Part shown: positions 10,665 to 36,847 of the stretch, piece by piece
How positions within the stretch are numbered: the stretch's first letter is position 1
Layout: every line of letters starts with the position of its first letter
Source: Reclinomonas americana ATCC 50394
Lineage: Eukaryota
DNA length: 46,001 bases
Assembly: GCA_048213135.1 (NCBI GenBank)
Contig: PS015220.1
Location: 1,837-47,837 of the forward strand
Direction of reading: 5' to 3'
Position numbers and translations under genes: made by a program
The notes under the pieces: model-generated
Database searches by the model: none
What the model was told of the DNA's origin: nothing
The model's input: the letters and a program-made list of their open reading frames with translations, nothing else

Positions 10665-11918
10665 TCACAAGTCCATCGGTGCTGGACCATCCTCTACTTC
10701 CAGCGCCATGCCAGCAGGGATGGGCGGCCGCACCGACTCCGTCCTCTTTGTCAACACTGGCGTCGCACCGCGCGGGTACACGTAGTTGCCAATGCGTGGC
10801 ACGTGCACCTGATCGCCGTTCGGCTTGTCGTACCCACGCAGGTACTTGACGTCGCCCTGCATCGCACATTGTGAGTGAGCACTCTGTCGAGAGTGGCCTC
10901 CCGTGCGCGCAACACCGACCTTGGTGATGACGCAGACGTCGACATTGGAGCCGGAGCCAAGATCGTTGAAGATGCCGGAGCTAATGGCCTGGTGCACCAA
11001 GTCAATCGCCTCCTGCTCCGCCATATCCATCCTGTAGCCGGCCTCGAAGACCGCCATGGCCGCCAACGAGCCCGAGCCCATGGTCACGTACGGCAACGCA
11101 TCCACCGAGCCGTGCGGGTGGATCGAGTACAAGTGCGGTCCCTTGACATCGACACCGCCGAGCACCAGCGCCGCACTGACGTGCCCCTGGTAGTTGAACA
11201 GCATGCGCTTGAGCAGCGTGCAGGCCGTGGACACGCGTGACTCCTTGTTGGTGGTCAGTCGGTGCAACGTCAGCTGCGACGAGATCAAGTCGGTGGTGTT
11301 CTCCGTGTCGGCGGCCGTGCCGGCGCCGCAGCAGTAGATGTTGGGCGCCAAATAGTGGATCTTCTTGCAGTTCTTGTCGGCCACAATCGGGCCCTCCGTG
11401 GCACGCGTGTCGGCTCCAAGCACGACGCCATCCTGTGCGTGAGTGAGTAACAGAGTGGGTGAGCAAGAGAGCATGTGAAAGACACAAATGATCAAATTCA
11501 CACACAGGAGACAACTTTTGTGTGTTGCCATGCACACGCACACGCAAGGCGACATGAGCAAGTCGTGCGAGTGCACTGAGACAACAAGTGCGTGCGTGCG
11601 TGTTCATGCAAGTGGCGGTGTTGTCTCTCTCTGTGCGTGTAAACCCAATTTGCGCGCCATCTCACACACACACGCGCGCGCGCCCTTTCCCTCTTCTGCC
11701 TCCCTGCTTCCCTCCTCTTCTCCTCTGTGCCTCGCTGCTGCTGCTGTGTTCACCTTGTAGATGACACCGACAATGGTGGTGCCGGTCTTGCGCATGACAG
11801 GGCCAGTGGCACTGCCGCTGCCACTGCCAGCGCCCACGACAATGCCGCGTGAGGCCAACAGCGCATTGCGCTTGCAGTTCTCAAAGGAGAAGCCCAGAGG
11901 CTTTGGCTCGTCAAACAT
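10665..11918 (-). CDS. PSMB7: 20S proteasome subunit beta-2 (PSMB7/PUP1)
   Basis: Propeptide [13 protein letters not shown], cleavage site [59 protein letters not shown]. Confidence 0.96.
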
Positions 11919-12166
11919 GATGCTGATTGTGAGTGCAGGACATTGAAGAAACGTCGCGCAATCTTCTCCGTCGCTAGAAAAGAGTGGAGGTAAACGGCGG
12001 GGAGGGTGTTGTAATAACAGCGGCACAGGCACATATGCAATACACAGAGCGCACACAAAAACGCCGAGTGGAAGGGAGGTATGGAGAAGGGGAACGAAAA
12101 AAAACACACGCATTGCAGGCACACCAGCCACATTGACACACACACACAGGAGCGTGCGTGCGGTCT

Positions 12167-14282: not shown

Positions 14283-14515
14283 GCGTGTGACTCGGTGTGC
14301 GCGCGACTTGGTCGACGACGACGATTGACGAAACCCGGCAATCCTGTCGCGAACGTCGACTGCCCGAGCCACTCCATGACTGAAAGCAGCTCAGCTTCAG
14401 AGGCATAGCAGAAAGAAGGGCGAGCTGGCAATCACCAAAGGCATCAACAAAGAGTGGCGCGAGACGTCGACGGCGAGGCAGGACCGATTTCTTTCTCCTC
14501 CCTTACCTCAATCAC

Positions 14516-15491
14516 ATGCGCATTCAAGTGCACTACGCAGGCGACTCGTCGCGCGACGGCTCGCTGGACGAGGTCGACACCGGCTCGTGCACACTGGACG
14601 CGCTGATCGACTGGGTGCACGAGGAGAGCAGTGGTGCGCCACGGCCGCACCTCGTGCAACTCGTGGATGCATCCTCGCCGGCGTCGTCCATTGTGCGTGC
14701 ACAGTGGCGACCAGCGCGAGTCGGTCACCTCACACTGGCCGATCTGGGTTTGGACGACAGCGGCGAGGGTGCGACGGCGCATTTGCGATTTGTGTGCAGT
14801 GATGAGGCATCATCATCGTCGACCACGACAACGACTACTGCAGCTGCTCCGGCTCCCACAGCTGAAGCTGCTGGATCGTCGTCCACGAACCCCACACTGA
14901 CACTGACGCCGATCGGGTACGCGCACACGCCGTACGTTCAGCGCGCCGATGCGCCACGTCAGCCGGCGGCAGCCGAGGGCGTTCGTGGCACGATCGAGTT
15001 GCTGCCTGGCCACAACTACCATCACGCGCTGTGCGACTTGGACGGCTGGCAGTACATCTGGGTGCTCTTCTGGTTCCACCTGAACCAGGGCTGGAGGCCG
15101 AAAGTGTTGCCGCCGCGCACGGGCGAGTGGCACGTGCGACGCGGCGTCTTCTCCACCCGCTCACCGTACCGGCCCAACCCGCTTGGGCTGAGCGTGGTGC
15201 GACTGGAGCGCGTCGAGGGCCTCACGCTGCACGTGATCAACGTGGATCTGCTGGACGGCACGCCCATTCTCGACATCAAGCCGTACGTGCCGTACACGGA
15301 TGCGATTGTGGTGGAGCAGGCGGCGTCGTGGCTGGAGGCCGGAGCCGGTGATCTGGAGCGCGCGGTGCCGCGCGATCCACGCCCCGCCTACCACGTCGAG
15401 TGGAGCGAGGAGGCACTGGAGCGGCTGGAGTGGCTGCGTGCGCACTCGGAGCTGGTGTCGATCAGCAAGACCATCACCGCCGAGCAGCTGC
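14516..15491 (+). CDS. trmO: tRNA m6t6A37 methyltransferase TrmO/TsaA (5' portion, intronless) with N-terminal ubiquitin/UBX-like extension
   Basis: PIGYAHTPY...APRQP, LDGWQYIWVLFWFHLN, GVFSTRSPYRPNPLGLSVVRL, VDLLDGTPILDIKPYVP are TsaA/TrmO family motifs. Confidence 0.92.
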
Positions 15492-15614: not shown

Positions 15615-17954
15615 TTGCGAGCAGTGCATGTGGCAGGCACCAAGGGCAAGGGCTCGACGTGTGCCTTCACCGAGTCGATTCTCCGCAGCTGCGGCTTGAA
15701 GACCGGTGAGTGTGTCTTTGCGCTCTTGTGCCTCACCTCTCCTCCCCCCCTCTCTCTCTCCCTGTCTCACTGTGAAGCCAGGCATGTTCACCTCGCCGCA
15801 CTTGGTGTCGCCGCGCGAAAGAANNNNNNNNNNNNNNNNNNNNNNNNNNNNNNNNNNNNNNNNNNNNNNNNNNNNNNNNNNNNNNNNNNNNNNNNNNNNN
15901 NNNNNNNNNNNNNNNNNNNNNNNNNNNNNNNNNNNNNNNNNNNNNNNNNNNNNNNNNNNNNNNNNNNNNNNNNNNNNNNNNNNNNNNNNNNNNNNNNNNN
16001 NNNNNNNNNNNNNNNNNNNNNNNNNNNNNNNNNNNNNNNNNNNNNNNNNNNNNNNNNNNNNNNNNNNNNNNNNNNNNNNNNNNNNNNNNNNNNNNNNNNN
16101 NNNNNNNNNNNNNNNNNNNNNNNNNNNNNNNNNNNNNNNNNNNNNNNNNNNNNNNNNNNNNNNNNNNNNNNNNNNNNNNNNNNNNNNNNNNNNNNNNNNN
16201 TCTGCATCAATGGCGAGCCCGTCTCGCAAGAGCTCTTCACGAACCATTTCTGGCGCGTGTGGGACACCCTGGCCGGCAGTCGAGTGCGTGCTGTGCTCGT
16301 TTGTGTATGATTGTTTGCTTGCAGTCTCTGACAGACAGCCGCAGTCGGAGGAGCAGCCGGAAATGCCGACGTACTTTCGCTTCTTGACGCTGTTGTCGTT
16401 TCACATATTCTTGGAGGAGCGGGTCGATGTGTCGGTGATTGAGGTGGGCATTGGCGGCCTCTTTGATGCCACCAACATCATACCGCACCCCACTGTCTGC
16501 GGTTGCGTGCCGACTGCTGTTGTGCGCGTTGTCGGGCGTGCCACACTCTAACATTATCATCATTGCTGCTGTGCAGCCTGTGCTTCGTTGGGCATGGATC
16601 ACATGGAGATTCTCGGCAACTCGCTGGCAGAGATTGCCGCCGCCAAAGCCGGTATCTTCAAGGTGCGGACTTGTGTGTGTGTCTGTGTGTGTGTGTGCAG
16701 AGAGAGCGAGGTGGTTGTGAATTCATTGAGGTTTGCATATTTTTCCGATGCGTGTGATTCTTGTCTGCGTAGTCTGGTGTGCCGGCCATTACGGTTCCGC
16801 AAAAGCCCGAAGCCATGGAGGTGCTGACCACGGTTGCCGCGTCGGTCGGAGCCCCGCTCTTCCTTGCTCCGCCACTCGAAGAGTTTGAGCTGGCCACTGG
16901 CGGCGGACCGCTCACTCTCGGCATTGCCGGCGCCCACCAGCGCTACAATGCATCTTTGGCTCTCTCGCTGGCGGCGACGTGGTTGCGCGCACACGACAAG
17001 GCGCACCTGCTGTTGCCGGATCGCTTCATTGCACTGAGCGACGAGGCGGCCTCGGCCAGTGCCGCCGGCGTTCCGACCGCCTTCCGCGCCTTCCCCATCA
17101 CCGAGAAAGTGCGCAAGGCACTGGCGTCGCGCAGCTGGGCCGGCCGCTCGCACCGCCTGCCGTTCGTCGGACACGAGAATGTGGTGTTTTACTTGGACGG
17201 CGCGCACACAGAGGAGTCCATGGAGGTGTGCCACACGTGGTTCACGCAGGAAATTGCGCGATCCGGCGATCAGTGCGTATGCATGTACATGTTCATGCGT
17301 GTGGTGGGGGCGGCGCACGCTTTGCTCATCTCGAACGCGCGCAGCAATCTGACCGTGCTGGTCTTCAACTGCCAGAATACGCGCGATCCCACCGTTCTGC
17401 TGCGCCAACTGTGGTCCGTGGCCCGCCCGCTGTTCGACGTGGTCATCTTCTGCGCGCCCGACTCGACCAAGGCACATCTGCGACCACTGGTCCCCCCAGT
17501 GGCCACGGTGGAGAATGGTGACGCGGGCAGTGGCGGTGGGAGTGGGAGCAGTGGTGCCGCGACGGGCCAGCAAGATGGCGAGGCGTACACGCGTGATCTA
17601 CTGAAGCCGCCGGCGGCGTCGCAGTTGGTGGAGCAGTGTGCGTGGCAGCTAGAACAAATGCGCGCATGGTTGCGTCTGGCCGCCAACTACACCGAGTCGC
17701 AGCTGGAGGACACCGAGGCGCTGGCGAACACGGCGGTGCACAGCTGGGAGCGCCTCATTGGCGGTGTGCGCGCGGCCGAGGGTCCGCCAGTGGAGCCACT
17801 GGTGACGGTGGCACCGTCGGTGGCCGCCGTGCTCGAGTGGCTGTCCGTCGCCGACCAGCGACCGCCACAGTTGCACATTGATGTGCTGGTGACGGGCTCG
17901 TTGTATTTGGTGGGCGACGTGCTGGCTCACTTCTCGCCGCCGACGGCACAGTAG
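15615..17954 (+). CDS. FPGS: Folylpolyglutamate synthase, main body
   Basis: [17 protein letters not shown]...[30 protein letters not shown]...[29 protein letters not shown]. Confidence 0.95.
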
Positions 17955-21500: not shown

Positions 21501-23352
21501 NNNNNNNNNNNNNNNNNNNNNNNNNNNNNNNNNNNNNNNNNNNNNNNNNNNNNNNNNNNNNNNNNNNNNNNNNNNNNNNNNNNNNNNNNNNNNNNNNNNN
21601 NNNNNNNNNNNNNNNNNNNNNNNNNNNNNNNNNNNNNNNNNNNNNNNNNNNNNNNNNNNNNNNNNNNNNNNNNNNNNNNNNNNNNNNNNNNNNNNNNNNN
21701 NNNNNNNNNNNNNNNNNNNNNNNNNNNNNNNNNNNNNNNNNNNNNNNNNNNNNNNNNNNNNNNNNNNNNNNNNNNNNNNNNNNNNNNNNNNNNNNNNNNN
21801 NNNNNNNNNNNNNNNNNNNNNNNNNNNNNNNNNNNNNNNNNNNNNNNNNNNNNNNNNNNNNNNNNNNNNNNNNNNNNNNNNNNNNNNNNNNNNNNNNNNN
21901 NNNNNGCTCCTGACTTCCGGTCGTTGCAGCGACTCGGACTCGCCCCACGCCGTGGTGGCGCGGGAGAACGTCGGCGCAGAAGTCTCCTGATCGCGGCCAT
22001 TCAACGCCAGGTAAGTGTGCGTCACAGTGTTGCTCTTGACTTCCGGTCGTTGCAGGGACTCAGACTCGCCCCATGCCGTGGTGGCACGGGAGAACGTCGG
22101 CGCAGAAGTCTCCTGATCGCGGCCGTTGAGCGCCAGGTACGTGTGCGTCACCGTGTTGCTCTTGACCTCAGGGCGTTGCAGCGACTCAGACTCGCCCCAT
22201 GCCGTGGTGGCGCGGGAGAACGTCGGCGCAGAAGTCTCCTGATCGCGGCCATTCAACGCCAGGTACGTGTGCGTCACAGTGTTGCTCTTGACCTCAGGGC
22301 GTTGCAGCGACTCAGACTCGCCCCACGCCGAGGTGGCGCGAGAGAACGTCGGCGCAGAAGTTTCCTGATCGCGGCCATTGAGCGCCAGGTAAGTGTGCGT
22401 CACAGTGTTGCTCTTGACCTCCGGTCGCTGCAGGGACTCGGACTCGCCCCACGCCGAGGTGGCGCGAGAGAACGTCGGCGCAGAAGTCTCCTGATCGCGG
22501 CCATTCAACGCCAGGTACGTGTGCGTCACAGTGTTGCTCTTGACCTCAGGGCGTTGCAGCGACTCAGACTCGCCCCACGCCGAAGCGCTGTGCGAGAACG
22601 TAGGCGCAGAAGTCTCCTGATCGCGGCCATTGAGCGCCAAGTACGTGTGCGTCACCGTGTTGCTCTTGACCTCCGGTCGTTGCAGTGACTCAGACTCGCC
22701 CCACGCCGATGTGGCGCGAGAGAACGTCGGCGCAGCAGTCTCCTGATCGCGGCCATTGAGNNNNNNNNNNNNNNNNNNNNNNNNNNNNNNNNNNNNNNNN
22801 NNNNNNNNNNNNNAACACTGTGACGCACACGTACCTGGCGTTGAATGGCCGCGATCAGGAGACTTCTGCGCCGACATTCTCCCGCGCCACCACGGCATGG
22901 GGCGAGTCGGAGTCGCTGCAACGACCGGAGGTCAAGAGCAACACGGTGACGCACACGTACTTGGCGCTCAACGACCGCGACCAGGATTCTTCGGTGTGTG
23001 GACCTTCTGCCTCGCTCTTCCTATCACTGCGATTCTCGATTTCTCACTGCTTTCTCCCCCGCAGGTTGCTCCACCGTCCAAGTTTTACAAGTATCCGTTC
23101 AACGAGACCGCCCCGCAGCGTCCACCTGCTCGGCGGCCGTACTATGGAGATGCGCTCGGATACATTGATCCGATGCGCGAGCGCGACGTCCAGACAACGA
23201 CGAAGCCAGATTGCGGCGTGGCACTGTCAAAGCCGTTCCACTGGGAGCAGCATTTCCGCAATCGTGGAATCTACGTCCCGGTGTACTACGCGGAGGAGGA
23301 GAATGTTGACGCGCAAGCACATAAGAAGCTTTCGCGTCCGCTTCCGCAGTAG
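18549..23352 (+). CDS. Ser/Pro/Arg-rich protein with about 8 copies of a 42-aa repeat; two internal contigs (19266-20976, 21906-22760) are assembled inverted
   Basis: Exon 1 MADVAIAYDAPDRP is on +. The Ser/Pro-rich exons and repeats read on - within gap-bounded contigs. Repeats resume on + at 22814 with an exact in-frame join (EVRS|NTVTHTY). Last exon ends ...RPLPQ-TAG. Confidence 0.65.
21906..22986. repeat. 126-nt coding tandem repeat (LALNGRDQETSAPTFSRATTAWGESESLQRPEVKSNTVTHTY), about 6.8 copies plus 1.4 copies after the gap
   Basis: 126-nt period directly visible; most differences between copies are synonymous in this frame. Confidence 0.95.
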
Positions 23353-26400: not shown

Positions 26401-28095
26401 CATGCGATTCTGCTCAAACGATGCACACACGCACTGCGTTGGTCGAAGGCTCCCCCTCTCTCTCACGGTCGAGCACTCACAACAACGCAACAGTGGCCGG
26501 ATCGAAGGCCAGAGCAGCTGAAGAAATGTGGTCCAACTCCTCGATCTCCGACGTCGACTGCGGGGTGGTTGGTTCGCCACCTGCACGTGACACACGCAGT
26601 AACGTACCCATATACAGCCGCCAGTGACAAGCGTACCCAGTGAAGCGCAACTGGCAGTGTAGTACACGGCATTCTCCACCATCTCAATCTCGTAGCTTCG
26701 GGTGTTGATCACCAAGACGCTTTGCGGGCACACAGCAACGAGCTTCGAAGCCGATCGACTGTGTTGAACAATTCAGTGCGCGACTTCGACGACGGGAAGA
26801 GCAAGCGATTCGCGCACGCACCGACCGCCGGGTATGAGATGCTCATCGATGCGGTGGGCATACTGCAACGACAAGATGGGAAACGAGAAGTCGGCCAGAC
26901 GGACACCGACCACGGGGTCCCCTGCACGCGCACAATCGAACAACCTCAGTCCGCAAGAAAGCGCAGCGCCACAGAATGACAAGTAAGACGCCCACCAATG
27001 TTGTGAATATTTGACGTGGACCCAGTGCCGCTGCCATTGCCACCACCACCACCACCACCACCACCGTCGGTGCGACGATCGGCTGACGCCTGTTGCTTCC
27101 AAGCCGGAGTACTGGATACCACCACATACTCACCTGCAACAATACAGGTTGAGTGCGTGCTTGGTGCACGTGTGCGTGTGACTGGCTCAACTTTCGCGCG
27201 CCGCAGCAGCTCGTTTCGCAGCATCGCGCTTATCTCGCCGACTGAATTCATACGCTGTCTCCAACGCGTACAGCTCCACGCTGCCACCCGGCACCATTTC
27301 GTAGAATCGGATCTTGCCGTCCTCCGCACCAACCGCGAAACGAGCGAGATCAGGCGCCGCAGCAATCGAAATCAGTGGCGATGCTGCCGCGCTCGCTGTT
27401 AGGCTCCACGCCAAGCACAGGAAAGGAGGGAGCTGGCACAAGAGACGCAACACGACAGGATGCCAGACTGGTACAGCAGCACGCGGGAGCTCCAGTCAAA
27501 CACCTAGCACGGCGTGAGCACGCACGGACTGCAAGAAAATAGCAACAGTCGAGCTCCACACACCTTGAACGTGCGATCTTCCGACACCGTGACAATATGG
27601 TACGCATCGCCTACGGTGCACACGCACGCTGCGTTGACCCGCCCCGAGTGACCCTCGAGTTGTCCAACCGCTTCCCGCCGCTGCGAACATCGACCATCGG
27701 TGAGCCCCCCNNNNNNNNNNNNNNNNNNNNNNNNNNNNNNNNNNNNNNNNNNNNNNNNNNNNNNNNNNNNNNNNNNNNNNNNNNNNNNNNNNNNNNNNNN
27801 CGTTTGTGTGTGTGTTTGTGTGTGCGCGTCTGGTGTTGTGTTGCACTGGCCACGGCGGAGGTGTAGAGAAGCGCAGAGTTGCGTGCCGTCCATGCCCACG
27901 ACTTATGTTTCTTGTCGTTGGGCGGTCGGCATGCCTCTGCGGCCTCGCAGCCGCCAGTGCACACCACCATGACCATCACACCACTACCACTACTTGTACG
28001 CCGCCGGCTTTCGCCTGACTGAGGGGGATCACGGACTTGCACCCGCAGTGCAGGTGGTCAGCGCCCTGCTGTGCCACTCTGACAGTCTCGATCAT
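23479..28095 (-). CDS. WDR27: WD repeat-containing protein 27
   Basis: 'DMPVMFHSKVKSSGYGSAP', 'VRDAAFYYRDKFVVLAAG', 'NLFLSTAPDGTIKLWDLR...FSPCQRYIACGSEN', 'GHTEAVTDVDFNPLFPQLVTCSVDG', and N-terminal 'LEGHSGRV...VTVSEDRTFK'. Start codon uncertain. Confidence 0.85.
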
Positions 28096-31402: not shown

Positions 31403-32967
31403 ATGGCCTCATCGTCGTCCTCCAGCAACAAGCTCACCGTGATCGGTGAGTGCGTCTCTGTGTCGTTCGCGGACATGTGATCACGACGATCACACGCACG
31501 CAACACCCTTCACTTACTCTGCTGCATCTCTTGTCTGGCTGCACGCGAGAGCATCACTCTCGTCTCTCTTTCACATGCACTGCACCTTCTCCTCCTTGTC
31601 CTCGTCGGTTGAGAACTCAATCCGGCATGCATGCATGCATACACAGGCATCGGTCGTATCGGTTTGTGCTTCTCCCTGTCGTGCGAGCGTGCCGGCTACG
31701 ATGTGCTCGGTGTCGACCTGTCGCCCGTGTACTGCGAGGCACTGAACAACCGCACGTATGTGTCGGACGAGCCGGGCGTCACCGAGTTGCTGCAGTCGTG
31801 CACCAATTTCCGCGCCACCACATCGCTTGCCGAGGTGTGTTCTTGTCGACTCCTGCGAGGATTGGAGTGCAGAACAACTGACTTCTTCATGCTATCTTGT
31901 GATTGGCAGGGACTGGAGTTCGCCGACACGGTGTTTGTGCTGGTGGACACGCCAACGGCTGGTGGCGAGCGTCAGTACGATCACTCGAAGGTGTCGCGTG
32001 TGCTGAGCCAGGTCAATCGTCGCAAGCCCGCCGACAAGCACATTGTGATCTCGTGCACGGTGATGCCGGGCTACATTCGCAACGTGGCGCGCTTCTTGCT
32101 GCGCGACTGCCCCAACGTCACAGTCAACTACAACCCGGCGTTCGTCGCACAGGGCGACATTCTGAAGGGCTACCAAACCGGCGGCTACTTTTCCATGGTG
32201 CTCGTGGGTGCCGACAACGACGCCAGCGCTGCACGGCTAACAGAGATCTACACGGCGCTGGCGCGTGGCTCGACCTCACCGCCCGCCATTTGCCGCATGA
32301 CGCCGGAATCGGCCGAGATCACCAAGCTGGCCTCCAACTGCTTCCGCACCATCAAGATCTCATTTGCGTTGCGTCTCGTCACTTGCATTTTCTGGCTGCC
32401 TCTCTCTCTCTCTCCTTCATGCTTACGTGCGCCGTTGCGTCGACAGAAACATGATTGGCGACATTGCCGATCGGACTCCTGGCGCCGACAAGGACGAAAT
32501 CTCACGTGCTCTCGGCTGCGACGACTCGATCGGACCCAAGTGCATCCGACCCGGCTACGCGTACGGTGGACCGTGCTACCCACGAGACAATGTGGCGCTG
32601 GGTGTGTATGCATCGTCGATTGGTGTGAAGCCGCTGCTGCCGGAGGCCTCGGATCAGTACAATGACTTCCACTCGGATCTCATGTTCCACGACTTGCTGG
32701 CGGAGGATCGCGAGGAAGTTGCGCGCTGCGGTTTATGGTGGTGGTGTTGCCGGTCACTCACCGTACTTGTGCGCGCAGTACCGATTCGAGGACGTGACAT
32801 ACAAGCCGAACTGTGCCGTGCCGATGATTGACAACTCGCCCAAGCTGCGCATTGCCAAGAAGCTGGCCAAGGCTGGCAAGAGGGTGGTGGTGTGCGACCA
32901 TGCAGCGGTGCTCGATGCCGTCATGCAAGAGTTTGGAGACATGTTTGTTTACGAGGAGCGCAAGTAG
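31403..32967 (+). CDS. UDP-glucose/GDP-mannose dehydrogenase family protein
   Basis: LTVIG|IGRIGL Rossmann motif, EPGV, VDTP, SCTVMPG, NPAF, SAEITKL..N, PGYAYGGPCYPRD, YKP...NSP. Confidence 0.88.
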
Positions 32968-33076: not shown

Positions 33077-33964
33077 CTACAACACGTACACTGTGATCTC
33101 CACGTCCGTGTCGCCAAACACCTCGTTCAGCATCTCCTCCACGCGACCCCACTCGAGGCGATCCAGACCACTGCCGAGAAGGTCGCACGGATGAGTGCAA
33201 AGCGAGCGAGAGACGGAGGGAGAGGGGAGAGGAGAGTACCAGCCGATGCGCGGCATGGAGATGCGTTTCACGGCCAGCGTCGTGCACAGCCGTCGCATGC
33301 CCTCCAGTGCCTGGCGCAGCGTGGCGTACGTTGGCTTGTGGAAGTACTGTGCGTGCAGGAGCGCGTCAATCGGACTGCCAACGCGGACGCCAACCGGGAA
33401 CACATGCCTTATCCTTGGTCACGAGGTAGAAGATGGCTCGATTCTCTTCCTCGCGATCCAGAAACACCACCGAGCCGATCGCTGAATGTAGTGCAGGAGA
33501 GTGAGAGAGGCGACCGCAACAAGAGAGATAGAGAGAGGGGTTGACGCACAGGGGTCTTGCGCCTTGAGCTCATCGACGCCGCCAAAGCGTCGCTTGAACT
33601 CGGTCGCAATGCCCTTGCCCATATGCATGTCAACAGAGACGCAGTGTGCGAGCGAGTCCTTGGAGGTGAACAAGTCACCTGACGATGTGCATTGATGTCA
33701 GCATCGGAGGATGCAGCACTGCACGTGTGTGTGCGGATGCTCCTCACCATGCACTTCCCTGACGACTTGTCGACGCGAGGGTGCGGCAGCTGATCTGCAT
33801 TTGTGGAGTGAGCGATGCGCAACGGGAGTGCATGTGGGAGAGAGAGAGAGAGGCAACGTAACGACACGGGTGTGGTGGACGAAGAAGCCGCTGTGGTGGT
33901 AGAGGGCGATGAGTGCACATGTGATTGATGCTGTGTGTGTGTGGTGACGCGCGTCACCTGACAT
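33077..33964 (-). CDS. OARD1: Macrodomain ADP-ribose glycohydrolase OARD1/TARG1
   Basis: [66 protein letters not shown]. Confidence 0.9.
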
Positions 33965-34139
33965 GTTGTTATGTGAAGAGGGAAGAGAATGGGACTCGAG
34001 TTGTCCGCTCAATTTTCCGACCCAACGCCTTCATGCTCGCTGCATTACGTGTTCAAGTGTTCACTGTAGCATTCTAAATGTCTGTCGGTGGTTGTGTATG
34101 CAAAATCCAAGCCGCCGGTCCTTCCGGCTCTGGGCGTGT

Positions 34140-36847
34140 TCACAACTCGTGGAATTTCTCTTCGTGGCAGCCGGGCGCATCCTGTTGTTGGGCGAAGCAC
34201 CAGTGCGGTCAGCCTCGCATGTAGACAGAGAGCGCAGGTACTGTCTATGCAGTACTCACCTCGCCCCACTTTCCGCAGCACTCCCACTGTACCGAAAAGG
34301 ATCAGAATGGAAATCGACGACAACTCATATGCCACACTGCACACGTACCTCCTGCCATCCACATGCGACACGAGATGGTAAAGGAACGACATGGTGAGAT
34401 GCAGAACAGTGTTAGTCGGAGCATAACACAGGAAGCAGTCGGTATTGTTCGATATCGATATCGATAACTCACCCCCTAACATCCGTGAAGCAAAGGAGCG
34501 ACGGCAGAACGCAGAAGTACACACGATAATGTCAGATGTCATCAAACATATGCAACAGACGAGGTGGACTGCAGTGGACTCAACTCGCTGCAGAGAGAGA
34601 GACAAGTCAACAGTCAGTGCCGAAATTCACAATCGTGAGTTTTGTGTGGCACACGTACCGACTGCCAGGCGAAGGAAGAGGGTCCCAGCAAGAGACAGCA
34701 GGCAGTGAGGCATGCATGCTTTCAGCAGCTAAAGCAGAGTGGAGAAGCACGCACATACTGCACATACAAACAACAGCATGCATGCGCAGTGAGTGCCTTA
34801 TATAATGACAGTTTTTTCTTCGACACGCACGCAACAGTGTGTCCGAACGGCAGAGCGGATGGCTTGGTGCGGTATGTCCCTGGATGGTACACTACATCAC
34901 ACAGTGACACCAGCGGCAGTGAGTGGAGCTCTGCAGAAAAGGACGACTGCAGGCAGGCGAGAAATCCGACAAACCACACGGAATCTCCGCCTCCTGCTCG
35001 CTCTCCACCAACGCATGGCAGCGCAGGCATCGCTGCACATCACACAGATTCCCTGTCAACAGCAACCTCCAGGTCTCACCTCAGCACGTTCGCAAACCTT
35101 GTGGCCGTGATGGTGACTCGAGTGCGAAAACTGCCCGTTTCAAACCAATCAGCACACAACTCACAGTGTCAAAAAAACGTTGTTTCTCACAGGCAGCGCA
35201 CCAGCGACGAGTGCGACGACATGCTGGACGACGAGCGTGCACTCAGAGGCGCCACCTACGCGACTCCACCGCCAGCAACCCTCTTCAGTGAGTTGTTCCG
35301 ATGCACACAACGAGGAGGGATGTTCATTGCGCATGACACTTTACCGTACTCGCCGCACTGGCTGGTCGCGCGCTCGGCGACGACGATGCGGCGCCAGCGG
35401 CACTCTGTGACGAGAAGCACACGTTGTTAGTCACCAAACCGTGATGCAATCGGCACAAGGCAACTGACCATGCTGATACTGTGGCCGTGTGCAGGTGCGT
35501 GCGAGTGCGGTAGCTCTTGCACCGATTGTGAAACCGATGTCGCGTATCGCGGCGTCGACGCATGCGACGGTGGCGACTGCGCAAGAGCACTAAAGTGAGC
35601 TTTTCTCCATTTATCTCTCTTGCGTGCACGACGCATGAGCACCCGAGATCGCACGCGGAGTGACTTGCGCAGGCGGACCACTTCGCGTTCCAGTTCATGC
35701 ACTCGCATCCGCATCTCTCGGTTTCTTGTCTCCAGCTTGGCCTGAGCGCGCGTGCACATAAGTGGGCAGGCACGGGAGAGAGTGCGAGGAGATAGATGAC
35801 GCACCACCATTCCCGGATCCTCGACAGGATGTCCATGTGCATGAGAATGATGAGGCGTGGGACTGACACTCAGCTCGCGGATCGTCGCCAGCAGCTGATC
35901 GCGTTCCTCAGCAAGGTGCTTGTTCTCGTCTTGCAGGGTGGTGATCTGCACGTTGCACGTTTGAATAAGCTCTGCCTATCACGGCTGTCAGCAGCTGCCA
36001 GCATCCACGACGCAACGCGACGCTTGACGGGCTCGCCAGCCGAGGCAAATGCACACTGGTGCTCGTGGGCGTCGAGATCGGCGACCACGCCGACCCACGC
36101 ACAGCCAATCGACGCAGCGTGGCAGTGTGCTGCCCGCTGGTTGCAAGCGTGCTCTGCATGAAGGAAGATCGACTGAGTGGGTGGAGGATACACAGTCGCC
36201 ACCGATTTGCTCACGCGCACCTCGATGCTCACGCATGTGGCACCGCGGCACCGGTTCGCGACACTGCGAGCACTGGATCTCACACACATGCTCGTGCGTG
36301 TGCACGTAGTCACCGAGTGTTCCCTTCCACGCACACTGTGCGTTCGGGCAGTGCGCCACCTGTGACGATCCGGATCCGCCGATTGAGAGAGACAACTTGG
36401 CAAGATCCACCACCAACACACAGGAACGAACCTGCAATCCCTCAAACGCCGCCGTCACCTCGTCCGACGGCGACACACACGAGTCGAGCGATGTGTCGCA
36501 GCACGGACACAGATGCCGCTCGGCGCGCGTCAGATGCTGCACGAATGACGATTGGTGAGAAAAAGATTCGCATCTGGACACACACCGCGTCACTCACCGC
36601 ACGACAAAGCGGATGCTGCGCCTCCGTGCACAGCACCATCGGCGGCTCACACAACTCCAGACACGCACTGGAGCACGCGCGTCGGAAGATTCTCTCCACC
36701 ACACACGCACTCAAAAAAAACACCGACAAGAAAACGCAACGCGCACTCGGCAATCTCATGCGCCTTTGCCTGCGACTCCGTCGTCAAGTCGATCAGACGC
36801 AGCGGGTGGCGATGAAACGTGGATGCGGCACACTGTGTCTCTGTCAT
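34140..36847 (-). CDS. RING + TRAF-type Zn-finger + coiled-coil protein with C-terminal Btk-like Zn motif; includes single-codon microexons
   Basis: RING: ECA|ACLELC...QHPLC...CPCC. TRAF-Zn: CPNAQCAWKG..H..C, CHAASIGCAWVG..H..C. C-terminus RCLRC...PC|VYHPG...|WECCGKWGE|DAPGCHEEKFHEL-TGA assembled with AG/GT boundaries. Confidence 0.8.

Follow-up and report, generated by a model that had tools for sequence, protein, structure and literature searches.

In a 46,001-nt stretch of the genome of Reclinomonas americana ATCC 50394 (contig PS015220.1, positions 1,837–47,837; hereafter the window), a densely split gene occupies about 36,750–34,140 on the minus strand and carries, towards its 3′ end, an unusual succession of candidate splice sites. 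In the 549 nt that separate two exons of a predicted Cys/His module, five YAG-NNN-GT sites follow one another, each placing a splice acceptor and a splice donor exactly three bases apart and cutting the gap into pieces of intron size. Here we show that this cluster is not due to chance and that joining the modelled exons by their coordinates, from the exon designated E3 to the last and with all five triplets included, gives an open frame of 1059 nt (352 codons and a stop). We propose that the gap is removed as a series of short introns, taken out singly and leaving one codon each, and that at least three to four of the five triplets are real exons, a reading to which we give about an even chance.

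The upstream border of the gap is formed by exon E13 and the downstream border by a 27-nt exon encoding WECCGKWGE (the WECC exon), and the intervening pieces are, in order, 78, 93, 71, 109, 121 and 62 nt long. The first piece (C1; 34758–34835) runs from GTTGCG to GTGCAG, has a CTCAC motif 36 nt from its 3′ end and contains no in-frame stop, such that the frame stays open if it is retained; it ends at triplet 1, TAT (Tyr; 34755–34757; cag/TAT/gtgcgt). Piece C2 (34662–34754; GTGCGT...GGCAG) leads to triplet 2, TCG (Ser; 34659–34661; cag/TCG/gtacgt), and C3 (34588–34658; GTACGT...CTGCAG, with CTGAC 30 nt from the 3′ end) to triplet 3, CGA (Arg; 34585–34587; cag/CGA/gttgag), the least certain of the five. 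For this third position a 27-nt exon (34587–34561) ending at a GTCTGT donor (34560) is an alternative, which would shorten C4 (34476–34584, ending in GTTAG) from 109 to 85 nt. Triplet 4, GGG (Gly; 34473–34475; tag/GGG/gtgagt), is followed by C5 (34352–34472; GTGAGT...GGCAG, with CTAAC 64 nt and CTCAC 47 nt from the 3′ end), and triplet 5, GAG (Glu; 34349–34351; cag/GAG/gtacgt), by C6 (34287–34348; GTACGT...GTACAG).

Several features of the pieces are those of introns. Their lengths (62–121 nt) match those of the remaining introns of the gene (44–126 nt), their G+C fraction is 0.49 compared with 0.63 in exons and 0.55 in other introns, and a branch-like CTNAY motif is present in all six, 19–64 nt from the 3′ end. 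A GTRNGT donor stands at four of the five triplet sites. Each of the triplets is in phase 0 and keeps the frame, and no stop codon is among them. A preliminary description of this DNA had listed five such sites with their coordinates, strand and piece lengths, together with branch-like motifs in the pieces and phase 0 throughout; each of these statements was confirmed.

The clustering of the sites was assessed against the window and against shuffled sequence. The window contains the extended pattern YAG-NNN-GTRNGT at six places on the minus strand and at three on the plus strand, and four of the six minus-strand occurrences lie between 34354 and 34760, that is, within about 410 nt; at the background rate, the expected number of clusters of this density (four in 410 nt) in the window is approximately 1.1e-5. 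When the spacing k between YAG and GTRNGT was varied from 0 to 15, each strand held 0–8 sites per spacing, and k = 3, a spacing at which the reading frame is kept, alone clustered in the gap. Among 20,000 dinucleotide-preserving shuffles of the 549-nt gap, at least one YAG-NNN-GTRNGT appeared in 784, the maximum of two was reached 25 times and four or more were never seen; five or more of the looser YAG-NNN-GT arose in 18. The gap contains nine YAG trinucleotides, eight of them internal, and NNN-GT follows five of these eight. The spacing is also regular: five random cut points left all six pieces at 62 nt or longer in 555 of 200,000 trials (p ~0.003), and a minimum intron length would impose such regularity. 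The preliminary description had called for a scan of the genome for runs of AG-NNN-GT, and within the window such a scan singles out the gap as the place of clustering; at the other occurrences of YAG-NNN-GTRNGT in the window (27531 and 26436 on the minus strand; 4969, 6569 and 29376 on the plus strand), reading in context made a microexon demonstrable at none. One of the minus-strand sites, cag/TCC/gtgcgt in the region 27400–27540, is closely preceded by a WD40-like exon (ending ...SEDRTFK), from which a 35-nt GT...AG stretch separates it.

The host gene was modelled by hand from E3 to E13 using GT-AG borders, frame continuity and zinc-finger motifs. The resulting minus-strand exons are E3 (36536–36432, 105 nt), E4 (36359–36221, 139 nt), E5 (36153–36022, 132 nt), E6 (35971–35868, 104 nt), E7 (35741–35655, 87 nt), E8 (35576–35469, 108 nt), E9 (35404–35345, 60 nt), E10 (35255–35202, 54 nt), E11 (35130–35098, 33 nt), E12 (35032–34975, 58 nt) and E13 (34836–34930, 95 nt), followed by the five triplets, the WECC exon (34260–34286, 27 nt) and the last exon (34140–34181, 42 nt). 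E3–E12 (34975–36536) encode RING-like, TRAF-type zinc-finger, coiled-coil and Ser/His-rich parts, and a RING-like stretch lies at about 36,700, at the 5′ end of the gene. In the N-terminal half, Pfam profiles matched below their cut-offs (TRAF2_zf, E = 1.6e-4 and 21.7 bits against a cut-off of 27; TRAF6_Z2, E = 0.013; Sina_ZnF, E = 0.021), and the TRAF2 chain 3knv aligned over a C-P-x3-C-x-W-K-G-T-L motif (E = 0.011); this half of the protein therefore looks TRAF/SIAH-like at the level of sequence. The introns after E3, E6 and E7 (36360–36431, 35742–35867 and 35577–35654; 72, 126 and 78 nt) are multiples of three, stop-free and hence less certain. The same two properties are seen in C1 and in a 63-nt minus-strand intron at 10857–10919; outside the chain, 6 of 14 introns are multiples of three, and the frame stays open if the stop-free ones are retained.

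Both ends of the gap are anchored by sequence motifs. E13, which carries GTGTACCATCCAGGG, encodes ...VYHPG...FGHT (...LCDVVYHPGTYRTKPSALPFGHT) and ends ...VYHPGTYRTKPSALPFGHT/GTTGCG, with act/GTTGCG as the donor. The WECC exon (cag/TGGGAG...GAG/gtgagt) shares its genomic frame with E13 and the last exon, and a direct splice would join the end of E13 to TGGGAGTGC. It is separated from the last exon, which encodes DAPGCHEEKFHEL and a TGA stop, by a 78-nt intron (34182–34259; GTGAGT...AACAG) that has CTGAC 31 nt from its 3′ end and in-frame stops. In all six frames of the window, [YFH]HPG is found once, in E13, W.CC seven times and [AS]PGC three times; because YHPG, W.CC and APGC stand in this order in a single genomic frame within 750 nt, both ends of the gap can be taken to belong together. 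On these ordered motifs and on the quality of their splice sites, we regard E13, the WECC exon and the last exon as real.

After splicing, the C terminus of the model reads C-x2-C-x13-C-x10-C-x4-H(PG)-x18(+5)-CC-x9-C-x5-H, in which the HPG histidine and the CC pair are x18 apart if the triplets are skipped and x23 apart if they are included. The preliminary description had likened this pattern to the Btk-type zinc motif. In Btk, the zinc ligands are reported as H143, C154, C155 and C165, that is, H-x10-CC-x9-C (PMC3836457). The comparison holds for the CC-x9-C spacing, which is identical, and fails for the His-to-CC distance, which is x18–x23 here and x10 in Btk; Pfam gave no BTK or CHORD match on the separate exons (E13, its read-through and the last exon), and no PH domain, which the Btk motif adjoins, was matched in the six gene pieces scanned. 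The CHORD pattern is described as C-x4-C-x13-C-x2-H-x14-CC-x15-C-x4-H with two zinc sites, of which, in CHORD-II of Rar1, one is formed by H181, C196, C197 and C213 and the second by C159, C164, C178 and H218 (PMC2935968). The candidate module shares with this pattern the order and number of ligands, C-x13-C and the closing His; it differs in most of the spacings, among them those of its first pair (C-x2-C compared with C-x4-C) and of the His-to-CC loop (x18–x23 compared with x14). By its ligand pattern, we call the predicted module CHORD/Btk-like and assign it to neither family; it would bind two zinc ions. The same structural account places an invariant exposed His at the tip of the H181–C196 loop of Rar1 (PMC2935968). 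By analogy with CHORD, where the loop that would receive the triplets is exposed, the residues they encode would probably be tolerated rather than needed.

On the basis of the site arrangement, we propose that the 549-nt gap would be handled as six short introns of 62–121 nt and not as one, each with its own 5′ splice site, branch-like CTNAY and 3′ splice site. Most of the five junctions would leave behind one codon as an exon: TAT, TCG, CGA (or the 27-nt exon), GGG and GAG. The introns would be recognized individually by intron definition, probably from 5′ to 3′ during RNA synthesis, and every step would join the growing 5′ exon to the triplet that abuts the next 5′ splice site, thereby re-creating the end of the 5′ exon. 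Such a process would resemble a recursive-splicing ratchet that leaves three bases per step. Up to five residues (Tyr, Ser, Arg, Gly and Glu) would be added to the loop between the HPG histidine and the CC pair, in the C-terminal two-zinc Cys/His module of a TRAF-like RING/zinc-finger protein. As all of the triplets are in phase 0, skipping any of them would merely shorten the loop. In its most extensive form, which we hold to be possible and lean against, the proposal is of a loop built codon by codon by five consecutive 3-nt exons, the smallest size that can hold a whole codon, with combinatorial skipping giving up to 32 variants of 0–5 added residues beside the zinc ligands of the module. 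New acceptor-NNN-donor sites that split up a long intron, at a place where the protein tolerates insertions, may have given rise to the chain.

The sites were scored with a position weight matrix (PWM) trained on the 11 introns that are required by frame, stop codons or homology, leaving out those after E3, E6 and E7. Among the 48 GT dinucleotides of the gap, the donors following GGG, GAG, TCG and TAT rank 1, 2, 3 and 8, and among 17 acceptors those of triplets 1–5 rank 3, 6, 2, 14 and 7, with the WECC acceptor first; only 2 of the 11 training donors themselves fit GTRNGT. The best donors of the gap are thus those that stand three bases behind an acceptor; very short exons are said to be flanked, as a rule, by strong splice sites. 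At the third triplet, the GTCTGT donor of the 27-nt exon ranks 7, compared with 36 for the GTTGAG donor of CGA; the preliminary description had offered this exon as an alternative, and it looks the better choice. Of the 100 best paths through the gap scored with no penalty on introns, 89 use TAT, 70 GAG, 69 GGG, 28 TCG and 2 CGA.

A number of findings weigh against a series of single-codon exons. Three sites in the exact chain are weak: the donors of E13 and of CGA (ranks 38 and 36 of 48) and the acceptor of GGG (rank 14 of 17); the E13 donor, GTTGCG, does resemble the frame-required donor GTCGCG after E5. Enumeration gave 100,393 stop-free, frame-consistent splice paths, of which, in the absence of an intron penalty, the exact chain ranks 327th, or 37th if the 27-nt exon takes the place of CGA, and the single intron 86,242nd; at a cost of 12 bits per intron, the single intron rises to 187th and the exact chain falls to 14,529th. 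A matrix of 11 introns is too small to decide the path. The CTNAY motifs of three pieces stand 47–64 nt from the 3′ end, compared with 20–37 nt in other introns. The His-to-CC loop is longer than that of Btk or CHORD even without the triplets, which therefore meet no evident structural need. Orthologs offer no help: a search for homologous proteins with the E3–E4 read-through recovered no relative, and the 68-residue E13 read-through had no homolog at E ≤ 10. Further searches with E13 gave one match by HMMER among 1.84 billion representatives (a repeat protein without an aligned stretch, judged spurious), none in the PDB at E ≤ 10 and no usable match in the protein atlas; in metagenome contigs, none of 435 pattern matches from a scan for the E3–E4 protein was confirmed, and a degenerate DNA pattern for the WECC exon had 0 matches. 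The preliminary description had seen in the arrangement a sign of strict intron definition. This is not required: the proteasome gene in the window has a homology-backed intron of 321 nt, so long introns need no subdivision. Finally, a keyword search of the literature turned up no consecutive 3-nt exons, which is not proof of their absence and sets a low prior.

The first alternative, which we consider rather unlikely, is a mixed chain in which TAT, GGG and GAG are real 3-nt exons and ordinary small exons fill the middle of the gap, either the 27-nt exon at 34587–34561 or exons of 7–63 nt formed through donors at 34654, 34630 and 34524. E13 may then be 5 nt longer, ending at a stronger donor (GTGCGT, 34830), and the frame would be regained further downstream. 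The scoring speaks for this arrangement in that the top paths often begin at donor 34830, mend the frame with exons of 7–63 nt and still use several triplets (34830, TAT, a 7- or 31-nt exon, a 63- or 27-nt exon, GGG and GAG). The higher rank of GTCTGT over GTTGAG and the preference of the best unpenalized paths for TAT, GAG and GGG over TCG and CGA point the same way. However, it leaves the strong cag/TCG/gtacgt site as a coincidence, a 43-nt intron or a 7-nt exon has to be assumed for no purpose other than frame repair, and the matrix on which it draws, with its 11 introns, is easily overfitted.

Removal of the gap as one 549-nt intron, or as two or three larger ones, is the second alternative, and an unlikely one. 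The internal sites would then go unused, as relics, as decoys that modulate splicing or by accident, and no residues would be added to the loop. The direct join of E13 to the WECC exon is in frame, the module needs no extra loop residues, and a 321-nt intron is spliced elsewhere in the window; at a realistic prior of 10–12 bits per intron the score of a single intron overtakes that of the chain, and the empty literature search also favours it. Yet 549 nt would be the longest of the 15 introns modelled and would begin at a weak donor, unused sites should decay, and the placement of the three best donors exactly 3 nt after YAG, at regular intron-sized spacing, would be left unexplained. A gene that ends earlier, without the WECC and APGC exons and with E13 read through as ...GHTVACVSKKK... 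to a stop near 34722, is very improbable: the frame does remain open for 37 codons beyond the E13 donor, but the read-through is A/T-rich like an intron (G+C fraction 0.45) and has no Pfam match, and the ordered YHPG, W.CC and APGC in one frame, the CC-x9-C that appears after splicing, the good splice sites and the stop would all go unaccounted for.

Other origins for the pieces were considered and set aside. Tandem duplication or an introner-like repeat is not indicated, as the pieces are mutually dissimilar, with local alignments close to those of shuffled controls; the locus has no tandem repeat other than (TCGATA)3, and no copy of any piece was found elsewhere in the window. Alignment of the five sites recovers splice consensus only. 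Triplets 2 and 5 are alike in 17 of 19 bases (TGGCAG-NNN-GTACGTGTGC), a likeness that may go back to an old duplication or reflect a preference for an extended site. Coding in another frame or strand was rejected, because the open reading frames at 34048–34626 (minus), 34639–35427 (plus) and 33948–34394 (plus) have no Pfam match better than E = 0.078. The first of these, 193 codons long (best Pfam E = 0.13), overlaps C4–C6 and both terminal exons out of frame with them, and has probably arisen by chance in G+C-rich DNA. The gap holds no classical recursive site, as none of the six minus-strand YAG/GTRNGT sites at zero spacing falls within it, and the window has no match in Rfam. Elsewhere, at 21906–22760 (continuing to about 22930 past a run of N), the window contains 6.8 tandem copies of a 126-nt unit with 91% matches, which on the minus strand can be read as repeats of 42 residues; the 10-mer of the donors of triplets 2 and 5 recurs in every unit on the plus strand, as CAG/GTACGTGTGC.

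The window as a whole is eukaryotic, with about 58% G+C and nine runs of N, and its genes differ in intron density. A proteasome beta-2/beta-7 gene lies on the minus strand at 10700–12000 (best solved match, chain 7qve_p; E = 8.8e-87), with homology-backed introns of 321 nt (11753–11433) and 63 nt (10919–10857; in frame and stop-free). The closest database relative of its exon, which is highly conserved, is 82% identical, and the window's own protein gives no self-match; with a relative of only 82% identity, the lineage is evidently poorly represented in the database. On the plus strand, an open reading frame at 14384–15490 resembles TrmO/TsaA-like tRNA methyltransferases (7btu; E = 7.6e-35) and is intronless over 175 aligned residues, whereas about 17 introns were modelled in the roughly 2.4 kb of the TRAF-like gene. 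An open reading frame at 31613–32665 (plus) is weakly similar to UDP-glucose/GDP-mannose dehydrogenases (best match, 3vtf; E = 8.8e-11). The frame at 16773–17954 (plus), guessed to encode a folylpolyglutamate synthase, found nothing in the PDB at 1e-10.

We know of no run of consecutive 3-nt exons, and the series proposed here would, if real, be the first. It would imply that the spliceosome can define an exon without internal sequence several times in succession, would provide a natural model of ordered, ratchet-like intron removal and would show a long intron subdivided at the cost of one residue per step. Open-reading-frame finders, most gene predictors and short-read aligners are blind to chains of one-codon exons, and similar cases in intron-dense protist genes may therefore be systematically missed.

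Among known systems, recursive splicing at ratchet points removes a long intron stepwise through an abutting acceptor and donor and regenerates the end of the 5′ exon. Ratchet points (AG/GT) leave no base, whereas three bases stand between acceptor and donor at all five sites here. In the micro-exon genes of Schistosoma, tandem symmetric microexons build the coding sequence, and in rice, neighbouring microexons of 5 and 12 nt have been validated (PMC8831610). These microexons are at least 5 nt long and form no run of single codons. Isolated 3-nt exons have been described in RPS24, in Drosophila homothorax (micro-Ex8) and in cytohesin-1 (a GGG exon); they share with the triplets the form of a single AG/GT-bounded codon that preserves the frame and changes one residue, some being alternatively spliced, and differ, in the descriptions available, in standing singly between long introns of animal genes, compared with up to five between introns of 62–121 nt here. 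The closest parallel in protein context comes from plant RAR1, a CHORD protein gene whose 3-bp exon 2 is conserved between Arabidopsis and peanut (PMC8430224). That account describes one exon and no chain, and the likeness is one of analogy: in both, single-codon exons, proposed in the present case, fall in a gene for a Cys/His-rich two-zinc module, here a predicted one.

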